Shown here one piece after another: positions 32,907 through 37,265 of a DNA stretch of 64,000 nucleotides. The translations under genes were made by a program, and so were the position numbers. Each line of letters begins with the position of its first letter. Positions within the stretch are counted from its first letter, which is position 1. A model generated the notes under the pieces. That model had not been told where the DNA came from, did no database searches, and was given only the letters and a program-made list of their open reading frames with translations. The stretch comes from Paracoccaceae bacterium (GTDB lineage Bacteria; Pseudomonadota; Alphaproteobacteria; Rhodobacterales; Rhodobacteraceae), in the NCBI GenBank assembly GCA_024639125.1, contig JAHEJA010000015.1, forward strand, positions 33,033-97,032, read 5' to 3'.

Positions 32907-34394
32907 GTGCAGCTATTCTGGTTCAAACGCGATCTTCGTGTGTTTGATAACCGCGCCCTTTCACTGGCTGCGGCCCGTGGTCCTGTGCTTCCGATTTATG
33001 TTTTTGAACCTGAAATGTGGGCATGCCCCGATGCATCGGCACGGCATTTAACCTTTGTACACCAATGCTTGGGCGAATTGCATAATGACCTTGCACGTGC
33101 GGGTCAGCCATTGGTGACCCGATTTGGACCAATCCTCGATGTACTTGAAGATTTACGTCAAACCTATTCGATCCAATCGCTATGGTCCCATCAAGAAACG
33201 GGCAACGCATGGAGCTATGAACGTGACAAGCGCGTTGCCGCGTGGTGCCGTGACAATGCCATTCAATGGCACGACATTCAAAACCACGGCGTTGTCCGAC
33301 CCTTAAAATCCCGCAATGGCTGGGCCATGCAATGGGATCGGTTCATGGCTGAACCCACCACGCCAACGCCGATCCTAACCCCCATTACGGATGCCCCGTT
33401 CCTTTGCCCGAGCGCCCGTGATTTAACGATGACGCCCGACAACTGTTCACACGCACAGCAAGGCGGGCGACGCGCGGGCCAAGAACGGCTTGCATCATTC
33501 TTGGATCATCGCGGGCGCACCTATCGTAGCGCCATGTCGTCACCGCTAGATGGGGCCGCAGCCTGTTCGCGGATCTCGCCACATCTGGCCTGGGGCACAG
33601 TATCGTTGCGAGAAGTCACTCAAGCCACATGGTCCGCACAAATGCAGCCACGGTCCGTGCAATGGAAAGCATCATTAAAATCATTCAACAGTCGTCTACA
33701 TTGGCATTGCCACTTTATTCAAAAGCTAGAAGATGAACCAAGGCTTGAATGGGAAAACATGCATCCGGCCTATAATGGATTGCGCCCTGACCAAGCTGAT
33801 CCAATCAAGCTTGCTGCTTGGGCGAATGGTGAAACTGGCCTCCCGTTTGTGGATGCCTGTATGCGCAGTTTACGCGCCACGGGGTGGTTAAACTTTCGGA
33901 TGCGCGCAATGGTTATGGCGGTCGCGAGCTATCATCTTTGGCTGGATTGGAAAGCAACGGGACATGTCCTAGCCAGATATTTCACCGATTACGAACCGGG
34001 CATCCACTGGAGCCAAGTTCAAATGCAATCGGGCACCACAGGCATAAACACAGTCCGCGTTTATAATCCGATCAAACAAGGCTATGACCAAGACCCCACC
34101 GGGGCCTTTACACGGACATGGGTTCCCGAGCTGGAACTGATTGATGATCTTTATTTACAAGAACCGTGGAAGGCGCCGAATGCGGCAACAATATTGGGTA
34201 AATCCTATCCAATGCCGATCGTCGATGTCACGCATGCCGCCCGAGAAGCCAAAGATCGCATTTGGGCCGTTCGCCGCACCGAAGGGTTTAGAGATGGGGC
34301 TGCAAAAGTTCTAAAAAAACATGCCAGCCGCAAACCAGCCACCAAACGCGCGCGCCCCAAAGCAGCGTCCAATCAATTAAGCTTACCCCTATGA
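32907..34394 (+). CDS. Cryptochrome/photolyase family protein, canonical domain order (photolyase or DASH-like)
   Basis: N-terminal alpha/beta domain (LFWFKRDLRVFDNRAL) and a C-terminal FAD-binding helical domain (GETGLPFVDACMRSLRATGWLNFRMR...VYNPIKQGYDQDP). GTG start at 32907 with GGAG 6 nt upstream. Confidence 0.85.
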   Translation: MQLFWFKRDLRVFDNRALSLAAARGPVLPIYVFEPEMWACPDASARHLTFVHQCLGELHNDLARAGQPLVTRFGPILDVLEDLRQTYSIQSLWSHQETGNAWSYERDKRVAAWCRDNAIQWHDIQNHGVVRPLKSRNGWAMQWDRFMAEPTTPTPILTPITDAPFLCPSARDLTMTPDNCSHAQQGGRRAGQERLASFLDHRGRTYRSAMSSPLDGAAACSRISPHLAWGTVSLREVTQATWSAQMQPRSVQWKASLKSFNSRLHWHCHFIQKLEDEPRLEWENMHPAYNGLRPDQADPIKLAAWANGETGLPFVDACMRSLRATGWLNFRMRAMVMAVASYHLWLDWKATGHVLARYFTDYEPGIHWSQVQMQSGTTGINTVRVYNPIKQGYDQDPTGAFTRTWVPELELIDDLYLQEPWKAPNAATILGKSYPMPIVDVTHAAREAKDRIWAVRRTEGFRDGAAKVLKKHASRKPATKRARPKAASNQLSLPL

Positions 34395-34525
34395 AAATGC
34401 GCAAGAAATCGGATCTTCCTACCAAAACCTGCGTTACCTGTGGACGTCCGTTCACGTGGCGCAAGAAATGGGCCAAGGTGTGGGACAGCGTGAAGTATTG
34501 TTCAGAAAAATGCAGGCGTACATAA
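34391..34525 (+). CDS. DUF2256 small zinc-ribbon protein (44 aa), missing from the ORF track
   Basis: MKMRKKSDLPTKTCVTCGRPFTWRKKWAKVWDSVKYCSEKCRRT has a CxxC...CxxxC signature typical of DUF2256. Its ATG overlaps the upstream stop (ATGA), and its TAA overlaps the next ATG (TAATG). Confidence 0.75.
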   Translation: MKMRKKSDLPTKTCVTCGRPFTWRKKWAKVWDSVKYCSEKCRRT

Positions 34526-35751
34526 TGCAAGATAATGATCTTTTGACCGACCTTCCGTTGGAAGCTGAAAACATTGATTTCACACCTACCCGCGCTGCGG
34601 GCCTTGCCCGATTGGACAAATTCGTCTCGCGGACGGGGCGGCATTATGCATCCCAACGTAACTATGATTTTGGGCCAAAATTTCGATCAAACGTTTCCGC
34701 ATTATCACCATGGATACGACACGGTCTCGTAAACGAATATGATGTGTTAGAGCGCGTTTTAGCCAAGCATTCACTATCAAGCGCCGAAAAATTCGTTCAA
34801 GAAGTCATGTGGCGGACGTATTTCAAAGGCTGGTTAGAACATCGCCCTACGGTTTGGGATCACTATAAACGTGACTTGGAACGCTTAAGCACAAACGTAA
34901 CTGATCCCAGTTACAGGCAGGCAATCAATGGTGAAACGGGAATAGAGTGTTTCGATCACTGGGCTCACGAATTGGTCCATACCGGCTATCTGCACAATCA
35001 TGCTCGCATGTGGTTTGCATCGATCTGGGTCTTTACTCTGCGATTGCCATGGCAGCTTGGCGCAGATTTTTTCATGCAACATTTGTTAGATGGTGATCCA
35101 GCATCCAACACTCTGAGTTGGCGCTGGGTGTCAGGATTACATACCCAAGGCAAAACCTATCTGGCCCGCGCAGAGAATATCGCCAAATTCACCAATGGTC
35201 GTTTTAACCCGATTGGACAGCTTGCGACAACGGCACATCCATTACTCGAAGAGGTGGATCACCCAAAAATATCACTGTCTCATATTAATACACCGATTAC
35301 GGAACCCTATATTCTTTTGCTTAGCGAAGACGACACTTACCCAAACATCGCACCAAATCCAGTTGACGTAGTTGCCGTTAACTGTTCCGCGTTGCGGTCC
35401 CCTCGCCCTCTAAATCCAGTCATTACCGAATTTGTGGACGCGGCGTTGCGACAAGGGCTAGATCACTTTCAATCCAATGACGATACACTCGCAACCCCAA
35501 ACACCGTGGTCGCGCAATTGGTGAAATCGGCACAAACCCAAGGAGTGCGCACAATCGTCACCCCCTATGCCACGACGGGTCCTGTTCGCGATGTTCTGAA
35601 AGATATATCACCCATGCTTCAAGATGCGGGATTGCGACTACAACAGGTTCAACGCACCTACGATCAACTTTGTTGGGCACATGCCTCCAAGGGATTTTTT
35701 GCTCTGAAAAAACAAATACCGCCTTTACTGAGTGCGTTGAAATTAGCCTAA
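34525..35751 (+). CDS. Photolyase-like protein with N-terminal FAD-binding domain and no N-terminal alpha/beta domain
   Basis: Residues ~15-230 match the photolyase FAD-binding domain (RNYDFGPKFRSNVSALSPWIRHGL; GETGIECFDHWAHELVHTGYLHNHARMWFASIW; SWRWVSG). The C-terminal ~180 aa weakly resemble a photolyase alpha/beta domain. The start is at M24 of the track ORF. Confidence 0.7.
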   Translation: MQDNDLLTDLPLEAENIDFTPTRAAGLARLDKFVSRTGRHYASQRNYDFGPKFRSNVSALSPWIRHGLVNEYDVLERVLAKHSLSSAEKFVQEVMWRTYFKGWLEHRPTVWDHYKRDLERLSTNVTDPSYRQAINGETGIECFDHWAHELVHTGYLHNHARMWFASIWVFTLRLPWQLGADFFMQHLLDGDPASNTLSWRWVSGLHTQGKTYLARAENIAKFTNGRFNPIGQLATTAHPLLEEVDHPKISLSHINTPITEPYILLLSEDDTYPNIAPNPVDVVAVNCSALRSPRPLNPVITEFVDAALRQGLDHFQSNDDTLATPNTVVAQLVKSAQTQGVRTIVTPYATTGPVRDVLKDISPMLQDAGLRLQQVQRTYDQLCWAHASKGFFALKKQIPPLLSALKLA

Positions 35752-37265
35752 AGCGACGCTAAAAATTTCTGTGCAGATATGCGGTATTCTGTCTTTTTAA
35801 CATCATCCATTTTGTCCCATGTCCGAAACACATGCGACAAACGCGGGTTTCCCCGAAGCTTGGCTTGGTTACGATCCAAAAAGTCCCAATACAGCGGATT
35901 AAACGGGCAAGCATTCTCGCCTGTTTTTTGTTTGACATCATATCGGCACCCGGAACAGTAATCCGACATTTTACTGATGTAATTACCGCTCGCAGCATAG
36001 GGCTTTGACCCTAAAATACCGCCATCCGCGAATTGGCTCATTCCAATTACATTGGGCGCTTCGACCCATTCATAGGCATCTGCATAAACGGCCAAATACC
36101 ATTCATGCACCTGAAATGGATCAACACCCGCAAGCATGGCAAAATTCCCTGTCACCATGAGCCGCTGGATGTGATGTGCATAGGCTTCATCGCGCGTTTG
36201 CTCGATCGCCGAGGCCATACATGCCATATCCGTCTGTGCATCCCAATAAAACAAAGGAAGATCCCGCGACGCATCCAGAAAATTTTGATCGGTGTAATCT
36301 GGCATCTTTAACCAATAAATACCGCGCACATATTCACGCCAACCAATAATTTGTCGAATATATCCTTCGACAGCATTCAAGGGCGCGGCGCCATCATAAT
36401 AGGCGCGCTCCACACGCGCGCAAACTTCGAGAGGCGTCAACAGACCGATATTGATATATTGCGCCAAGATCGAATGATACAGAAATGGCTCACCAGAAAG
36501 CATCGCATCCTGATAATCGCCAAAACCAGCCAATGCAGTTGACGCGAAATGTTCCAGCGCGACCAAGGCATCCTTGCGCGTGACGGCAAACCAAAACCCA
36601 TCTAACCGCCCAAAATTTTTGGCAAACTTTTCCTCGACAAGCTCAAGGACTTCTTGCGTGATTGGGTCAGGCTGAACTTTGACAGGGGACGGCATAAACA
36701 AATCGCCCTTGGCTGGCTTTCGGTTTTCCGCATCAAAATTCCACTGCCCCCCTTGGGGACCATCATCACACATCAAAAGCCCGGTTTTTCGCCGCATGTC
36801 ACGGTAAAAATATTCCATCCGCAATTGTTTGCGCCCGTCTGCCCAAGTTTGGAATTCTTGATGTGTCGCGATAAAACGATCATCATCCACCATCTGTATC
36901 GACAGATCACTCTCAAGCAAGGCGTGGTTCAAACGATACTCAGATGGCTCTGTCACAACAAGCTGCGTCACCCCCAGCATTTGCATCTGCCGTCTAGCTT
37001 CGCTGACTACATCGCCTGCATTCTGGGGGTCATCCAGCTTTGTGTACACAACGCGCCAACCGCTCTGCCGCAACTCTTGGGCAAAATGGCGCATTGCGGA
37101 AAACACAAATGCCAACTTCCGTTTATGATGCGCCACATACGTTGCTTCGCTTGCAACTTCTGCCATCAAGATAACATCAGTCGCCTTATCAGCTGTTTCT
37201 ATCGCGCTAATTTTGGGGTTCAACTGATCCCCTAAAATTAGAACTAACCGATTATGACCCGCCAT
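35748..37265 (-). CDS. FeS-BCP type cryptochrome/(6-4) photolyase (CryB/PhrB family)
   Basis: 505 aa with LVLILGDQL at the N-terminus and four conserved Cys in DYCSGCRYD...ENACPFNPLYW, the 4Fe-4S ligand pattern of PhrB/CryB. Convergent 4-nt overlap with the upstream operon. Confidence 0.85.
   Translation of the reverse strand: MAGHNRLVLILGDQLNPKISAIETADKATDVILMAEVASEATYVAHHKRKLAFVFSAMRHFAQELRQSGWRVVYTKLDDPQNAGDVVSEARRQMQMLGVTQLVVTEPSEYRLNHALLESDLSIQMVDDDRFIATHQEFQTWADGRKQLRMEYFYRDMRRKTGLLMCDDGPQGGQWNFDAENRKPAKGDLFMPSPVKVQPDPITQEVLELVEEKFAKNFGRLDGFWFAVTRKDALVALEHFASTALAGFGDYQDAMLSGEPFLYHSILAQYINIGLLTPLEVCARVERAYYDGAAPLNAVEGYIRQIIGWREYVRGIYWLKMPDYTDQNFLDASRDLPLFYWDAQTDMACMASAIEQTRDEAYAHHIQRLMVTGNFAMLAGVDPFQVHEWYLAVYADAYEWVEAPNVIGMSQFADGGILGSKPYAASGNYISKMSDYCSGCRYDVKQKTGENACPFNPLYWDFLDRNQAKLRGNPRLSHVFRTWDKMDDVKKTEYRISAQKFLASL

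Follow-up and report, generated by a model that had tools for sequence, protein, structure and literature searches.

The NewPHL photolyases are a bacterial subfamily without the N-terminal antenna domain, defined by Emmerich et al. (2020, Nucleic Acids Res 48:12845; PMC7736829). Their all-helical FAD domain, with all residues for CPD repair, is N-terminal, and it is followed by a C-terminal Z-domain of approximately 150 aa, marked by a GFF motif and a single conserved Trp. Of the Trp triad for photoreduction only two members are retained (PMC7736829). The same class was described independently as SPL (short photolyase-like) by Xu et al. (2021, Mol Biol Evol 38:4505; PMC8476157). SPL subgroup A is found mostly in Alphaproteobacteria and has no four-Cys site, RlSPL of Ruegeria lacuscaerulensis being an example; in subgroups C and Ac four conserved Cys ligate an Fe-S cluster (PMC8476157).

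The NewPHLs of Dinoroseobacter shibae (DsNewPHL) and Methylobacterium mesophilicum (MmNewPHL) have FAD as their sole chromophore and repair CPDs in oligo(dT) and not in duplex DNA (PMC7736829). [quoted passage not shown] NewPHL is said to substitute for DASH in bacteria without DASH (PMC7736829). [quoted passage not shown] Both founding papers propose NewPHL/SPL as the ancestral minimal photolyase, and both left the fold of the Z-domain unresolved (PMC7736829, PMC8476157).

Here we describe a photolyase-family gene in a 64-kb stretch of DNA, referred to as the window. We consider its product, with high confidence, to be a NewPHL photolyase (SPL subgroup A), with the catalytic FAD-binding helical domain first and an alpha/beta Z-domain of approximately 150 aa last.

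Identification of the gene and its homologues

The photolyase-family ORF pointed out in an earlier note on this DNA is a real gene (Table 1), and the motifs quoted there were found at aa 45-68, 157-168 and 198-204. A protein identical to the 408-aa product is present in NCBI. The current database name of such proteins is 'FAD-binding domain-containing protein'. A longer version with a GTG start at 34456 (431 aa) was rejected, as the extra residues come from reading the DUF2256 gene in a different frame, and most of the homologues begin at the position of 34525.

Table 1. Location of the photolyase-family genes, the DUF2256 gene and the domains of the NewPHL protein (positions in the window)
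Feature	Position	Strand	Details
Two-domain cryptochrome/photolyase gene, NewCRY/'DASH-like' type	32907..34394	+	495 aa; PF00875 + PF03441; below all NCBIfam cut-offs
DUF2256 gene	34391..34525	+	44 aa, basic, Cys4 (CxxC...CxxxC); PF10013, E 2.1e-23; ORF overlooked in the earlier note
NewPHL/SPL (subgroup A) gene	34525 (ATG)..35751 (TAA)	+	408 aa plus stop; ORF, PF03441 only
All-helical FAD-binding/catalytic domain of NewPHL	34564..35190	+	aa 14-222; holds R45, E93, W96, N158, M162, W176, D189, D191, N195, W199, W201
Inter-domain linker, extended and lacking regular secondary structure	35191..35310	+	aa 223-262; no helix or strand by DSSP of the AlphaFold2 model; pLDDT mostly >85
C-terminal Z-domain	35311..35748	+	aa 263-408; predicted alpha/beta fold, four main strands, C-terminal helical tail with W384 and G390-F391-F392
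FeS-BCP / bacterial (6-4) photolyase gene	35748..37265	-	505 aa; PF04244 DPRP, E 1.6e-82; A. tumefaciens PhrB (4dja), E 3.7e-203, residues 6-504

Of the 8000 candidates that the homologue search scored, every one passed the threshold of E <= 0.001. The 120 homologues listed, of the 8000 scored, were 401-477 aa long, had PF03441 as their sole Pfam domain and gave a query coverage of 96-100%. The search of the genome collection found at least 594 stretches with a relative (594 of the 600 listed), with 56% identity for the best match. Conservation among the homologues reached the last residues of the protein. The loop after the helix at aa 109-123 was five residues shorter than in most relatives.

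A protein from R. lacuscaerulensis ITI-1157 was 56% identical to the product at 98% coverage (E 1.7e-142; homologue search), and the same locus was found in the genome collection. The link to the published family was made through the family description, the spacing of residues and this Ruegeria orthologue, which matches by species, its accession being unconfirmed; DsNewPHL was compared by its published numbering only. The protein is a member of the family by sequence, and its architecture, residue conservation, predicted fold and gene cluster, as given below, were likewise observed.

Inverted domain order

With Pfam, the whole protein contained PF03441 (FAD_binding_7) as its sole domain (aa 90-250, E 9.7e-26). 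The full-length photolyase/cryptochrome models of NCBIfam matched with their C-terminal halves only, model positions ~195-428 corresponding to aa 14-246 (for instance NF007955, 195-428), and every score fell far short of its family cut-off. The best matches in the PDB sequence search were class I CPD photolyases, through the catalytic domain only (1tez, residues 206-395 to aa 20-205, E 4.9e-21), and no solved structure of the NewPHL architecture was found among the PDB sequences searched. The FAD-binding domain is thus N-terminal, as the earlier note had claimed, since the alignments to photolyase models and PDB chains start at residue ~195-206 of these and at aa 14-20 of the protein. The absence of an N-terminal alpha/beta domain, also claimed there, was confirmed by the Pfam scan, in which PF00875 was absent from the full-length protein, and by the AlphaFold2 model, in which the first helix is at aa 23.

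The earlier note had further proposed HMM searches on the two halves separately. When the C-terminal 163 aa were scanned alone, PF00875 was not found there, and the sole Pfam match up to E = 10 was the insignificant PF15011 (E 0.2). The Z-domain has no model in either Pfam or NCBIfam. The protein was rightly said not to be an FeS-BCP: it has three Cys in total, none of them at a fully conserved position of the 100-sequence alignment, and both the PF04244 DPRP domain (Pfam scan) and the four-Cys pattern (Cys count) were absent. The novelty implied for the reversed order is refuted, because it has already been published for NewPHL/SPL as 'inverted topology' (PMC7736829, PMC8476157) and is therefore the architecture of a known, characterised family, which the earlier note had itself named as a reason to give up the claim.

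A cluster of photolyase-family genes with DUF2256

The NewPHL gene is the third of a tightly packed co-directional set. The start codon of the DUF2256 gene overlaps the stop codon of the NewCRY-like gene (ATGA), and its stop codon overlaps the start codon of the NewPHL gene (TAATG). The overlapping stop and start codons at both junctions suggest that the three genes are translationally coupled. On the other side, the FeS-BCP gene is convergent with the NewPHL gene, their ORFs sharing 4 bases where the stop codons overlap. The cluster is flanked by housekeeping genes. A scan for promoters and terminators around it gave nothing above shuffled expectation, and no Rfam RNA families were detected in the whole window.

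Neither a class I/III photolyase gene nor a DASH gene was present within the window; no further photolyase-family genes of any kind were found there outside the cluster. The adjacent PhrB-like (6-4) photolyase is in line with the published co-occurrence and shared operons. In the NewCRY-like protein, based on the alignment to 4u63, R263 is at the site of E. coli E274 and F330 at that of N341, and this R and F were found in all 36 orthologues. Loss of both CPD-binding residues defines the non-repairing 'NewCRY' group (PMC7736829).

The four Cys of DUF2256 (C14, C17, C37 and C41) are invariant, and the domain is a member of the TRASH zinc-binding clan. On the function of DUF2256 no study was found in the literature, and the PDB sequence search gave no relative. 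Of 80 genome loci with NewPHL as the anchor, 14 had DUF2256 immediately upstream, about 18 contained a NewCRY-like gene and about 17 an FeS-BCP gene. We also collected 80 metagenome loci anchored on DUF2256, a sample biased to the close relatives of the query, and a photolyase-family gene was located within 300 bp in 37 of them, on the same strand in 36 of the 37. This neighbour was NewCRY-like in 17 loci, an FeS-BCP in 17 and a NewPHL in 3. By our own estimate from this biased sample, the linkage between DUF2256 and photolyases is far above chance for the few photolyase genes per genome. Other DUF2256 copies adjoin unrelated genes. In Woeseiaceae they are near Fpg/Nei-like glycosylase genes, these neighbours being named by eye from ORF ends. 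One DUF2256 copy among the NewPHL-anchored loci has an in-frame stop.

Predicted fold and origin of the Z-domain

The AlphaFold2 model of the protein, built with a 100-sequence alignment, has two domains (pLDDT 94.2, pTM 0.92). Helices extend over aa 23-222, and the linker after them is ordered but irregular. In the Z-domain, predicted strands at aa 263-267, 281-285, 343-347 and 371-375 are interleaved with helices, and short terminal helices follow at aa 378-404. The helices with W384 and the GFF motif had a pLDDT of 57-72 when the Z-domain was modelled alone, as compared to 93-96 in the full-length model, which fits a position at the inter-domain interface, capping the FAD pocket. The signature residues were well conserved among 83 orthologues: W384 in 80, G390 in 82 and F392 in 81, with F (71) or Y (12) at position 391.

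We compared the predicted Z-domain with 48,164 PDB chains. The best eight chains were all CPF members, and all 14 CPF representatives were within the top 52. The alignments covered 125-138 residues for the CPF chains and about 100 for USPs. [quoted passage not shown] The predicted fold and its best matches, photolyase/cryptochrome chains, bear out the alpha/beta-like character of the C-terminal domain noted earlier. With Foldseek no match was below E 1e-3; the best E-value was that of a USP domain, whereas probability (0.97-0.99) and TM (0.41-0.50) were highest for CPF chains.

These results bear on the origin of the Z-domain and not on the function of the protein. The Z-domain could be a Rossmann-like (USP/HUP-type) domain that was recruited independently, or NewPHL could be a minimal, ancestral photolyase whose C-terminal cap is its own; in both cases the circular permutation would be only apparent. 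This is a possibility that we take seriously but lean away from. The structural ranking leans to a photolyase-type domain, which may have moved by true circular permutation or by a domain swap. For the first 125 residues of the Z-domain a contact map resembling that of the antenna domain was reported (Emmerich et al., PMC7736829). In HHalign comparisons, a 72-sequence profile of the Z-domain gave P 0.038 against the NewCRY N-domain and P 0.048 against the FeS-BCP N-domain, the latter alignment being co-linear over 129 columns from the first strand onward. Over both attempts, the first one smaller, P ranged from 0.04 to 0.24. As a positive control we aligned the N-domains of NewCRY and FeS-BCP, which are certain homologues, and these scored no better (P 0.047). 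The non-significance of the HHalign scores is therefore uninformative and no evidence against homology.

We tentatively propose, as a joint reading that is possible but somewhat less likely than not, that the Z-domain is a degenerate photolyase N-terminal alpha/beta domain moved to the C terminus, so that NewPHL would derive from a two-domain photolyase by domain permutation and would not be the ancestral minimal photolyase, and that DUF2256 is a dedicated zinc-binding partner of bacterial cryptochrome/photolyase proteins, for instance a nucleic-acid-binding or regulatory subunit. The new elements here are minor, namely the predicted fold assignment of the Z-domain and the DUF2256 coupling. 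The former touches a question of the field, namely whether all photolyases descend from NewPHL/SPL or whether NewPHL/SPL itself arose by rearrangement, and the latter provides a hypothesis for an uncharacterised domain that is concrete and cheap.

Active site and proposed activity

The protein was aligned to 1tez/1owl and the equivalent residues were expressed in E. coli numbering. The residues of the CPD site are E93 (E274), W96 (W277), N158 (N341), M162 (M345) and W201 (W384), and further active-site equivalents are N195 (N378), D189/D191 (D372/D374) and R45 (R226). None of these mapped residues varied among 84 orthologues, which were taken from genome and metagenome loci. In the same orthologues the proximal (W199) and medial (W176) Trp of the electron-transfer chain were both conserved, while the distal site (W314 in Synechococcus, W306 in E. 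coli), occupied by T123 in this protein, was variable and never a Trp. Loss of the distal Trp with the other two kept matches the published Trp dyad of NewPHL. The spacing of E93/W96/W111 and of N158/W176/W199/W201 is identical to that of E81/W84/W99 and N151/W169/W192/W194 in DsNewPHL.

[quoted passage not shown] By analogy with the D. shibae and M. mesophilicum proteins, FAD would be the sole chromophore, bound in the U-shaped pocket formed by the helical domain. It would be kept as FADH- by two-Trp photoreduction from W199 to W176, a photoreduction that would be slow as the third Trp is missing. After excitation with blue/UV-A light, an electron would be passed to the CPD and the dimer would be split. 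The CPD is expected to be held between W96 and W201 and hydrogen-bonded to E93 and N158, with M162 also at the site. The substrate would be a CPD in single-stranded or unwound DNA and not in duplex DNA, because the inter-domain phosphate-binding loop, which holds kinked duplex DNA in canonical enzymes, is absent (PMC7736829). The specificity for single-stranded DNA has been measured in two orthologues only. The Z-domain would cover the pyrimidine edge of the flavin in place of the N-terminal domain (PMC7736829). Together with the adjacent (6-4) photolyase, the cluster would cover two lesion types.

It is improbable, in our view, that the protein is instead a cryptochrome-like light sensor or regulator, perhaps acting with the products of the upstream NewCRY-like and DUF2256 genes. 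Its gene appears to be translationally coupled to a NewCRY-like gene without the repair residues and to one for a small basic Cys4 protein, and Xu et al. raised SPLs as possible bacterial cryptochromes, RfSPL being the protein with the minor in vivo role (PMC8476157). Nevertheless, the CPD-binding and catalytic residues are invariant in the 84 orthologues, a pattern that would be difficult to account for if repair were not under selection, and both characterised orthologues of the same subgroup, as well as RfSPL, repair CPDs in vitro. An artefact, either a 5'-truncated pseudogene of a canonical photolyase or a mis-assembled fusion with unrelated downstream sequence, has nothing but the unusual domain order in its favour and is refuted to the point of near-certainty by the identical NCBI protein, the listed homologues of similar length and high query coverage, the relatives in at least 594 stretches of the genome collection, the conservation up to the C terminus, the compact and confident model, and the conserved DUF2256 gene that fills the upstream space with no photolyase remnants.

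Comparison with known photolyases

The oddity flagged in the sequence is real, yet it lies within a published and partly characterised family and is not a new architecture. No family-defining difference was found between the protein and NewPHL/SPL subgroup A, in which DsNewPHL and MmNewPHL have been characterised and RlSPL is an example. They share a length of approximately 400 aa, a sequence of alphaproteobacterial type, the inverted domain order, the CPD active site, the Trp dyad, a Z-domain with Trp and GFF, and the lack of a four-Cys cluster.

In comparison to the class I/III CPD photolyases (E. coli Phr 1DNP, Synechococcus elongatus 1TEZ/1OWL and A. tumefaciens PhrA 4U63), the protein lacks the PF00875 antenna domain, the long inter-domain linker with the phosphate-binding loop and the distal Trp, and R342 of E. 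coli is replaced by an invariant His (H159). It scored 84 bits with the class I CPD photolyase model NF007955, as compared to a cut-off of 506. By analogy with the characterised orthologues, it is expected to differ from these enzymes also in having no antenna chromophore and in acting on single-stranded DNA only. The FeS-BCP / CryPro proteins (PhrB 4DJA, CryB 3ZXS) differ from it in having PF04244 and the four-Cys site for [4Fe-4S], and its active site is of the CPD type and not of the (6-4) type. Cry-DASH (Synechocystis 1NP7, Arabidopsis Cry3 2J4D) shares the function proposed here, CPD repair limited to single-stranded DNA, but begins with the canonical alpha/beta domain, which carries an MTHF antenna; with the Cry-DASH model TIGR02765 the protein scored 76.4 bits as compared to a cut-off of 317, and only the C-terminal half of the model was matched.

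Genes around the NewPHL photolyase gene

The gene upstream encodes a two-domain cryptochrome/photolyase-family protein that scored under all NCBIfam cut-offs. At the two CPD-binding positions of this protein, Arg replaces Glu (E274 in E. coli) and Phe replaces Asn (N341 in E. coli), and the same two residues were found in all 36 orthologues. Based on these substitutions, the protein fits the 'NewCRY'/'DASH-like' group.

The NewCRY-like and NewPHL genes flank a small DUF2256 gene, with junction overlaps of ATGA and TAATG. It encodes a basic protein of the TRASH zinc-binding clan in which four Cys are invariant. Among 80 DUF2256-anchored metagenome loci, a sample biased towards close relatives of the query, a photolyase-family gene was located within 300 bp of DUF2256 in 37, and 36 of these 37 neighbours were on the same strand. 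No functional studies of DUF2256 were found in a literature search. The DUF2256 gene that precedes NewPHL in Ruegeria sp. 2205SS24-7 (L003:5870-6001; L-numbers denote NewPHL-anchored genome loci) is interrupted by an in-frame stop at the conserved Trp codon (WGKK*AKVW). This copy is a pseudogene or contains a recoding site, unless the stop is a sequencing error. In three loci from gammaproteobacterial Woeseiaceae MAGs (L021, L032, L036) DUF2256 does not adjoin NewPHL, being found a few kb downstream (around L021:8847-10420) with a glutathione-peroxidase-like ORF on one side and an Fpg/Nei-type DNA glycosylase-like ORF on the other, both named by eye from ORF ends. With these putative neighbours, the loci are a further DNA-damage context for DUF2256.

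Features of the NewPHL cluster
Feature	Window position	Strand	Description
Two-domain cryptochrome/photolyase-family gene	32907..34394	+	495 aa
DUF2256 gene	34391..34525	+	44 aa; PF10013, E 2.1e-23
H159 codon of NewPHL	34999..35001	+	Counterpart of R342 (E. coli) and R350 (Synechococcus)
NewPHL / FeS-BCP (6-4) photolyase ORF overlap	35748..35751	both	4 bases at stop codons

Downstream, the convergent NewPHL and FeS-BCP genes have no intergenic space because their ORFs overlap at the stop codons (TAA on +, TAG on -). A scan around the cluster revealed no terminator-like site above shuffled expectation, and therefore each transcript must extend into the coding region of the other gene.

Distribution and DNA-contact residue of NewPHL

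Actinobacterial NewPHL sequences from Curtobacterium, Microbacteriaceae, Microcella and Cryobacterium (L047, L064, L076, L078) were 48-49% identical to the alphaproteobacterial-type target. As this is about the identity seen for many Alphaproteobacteria, the comparison suggests that the gene moved between phyla by horizontal transfer.

Class I photolyases contact the DNA backbone with an Arg (R342 in E. coli, R350 in Synechococcus), whereas NewPHL has an invariant His at this site (84/84 orthologues; motif HNHxRMW). Judged from these sequences, the Arg-to-His substitution is specific to the NewPHL family, and it may relate to the ssDNA specificity of NewPHL.
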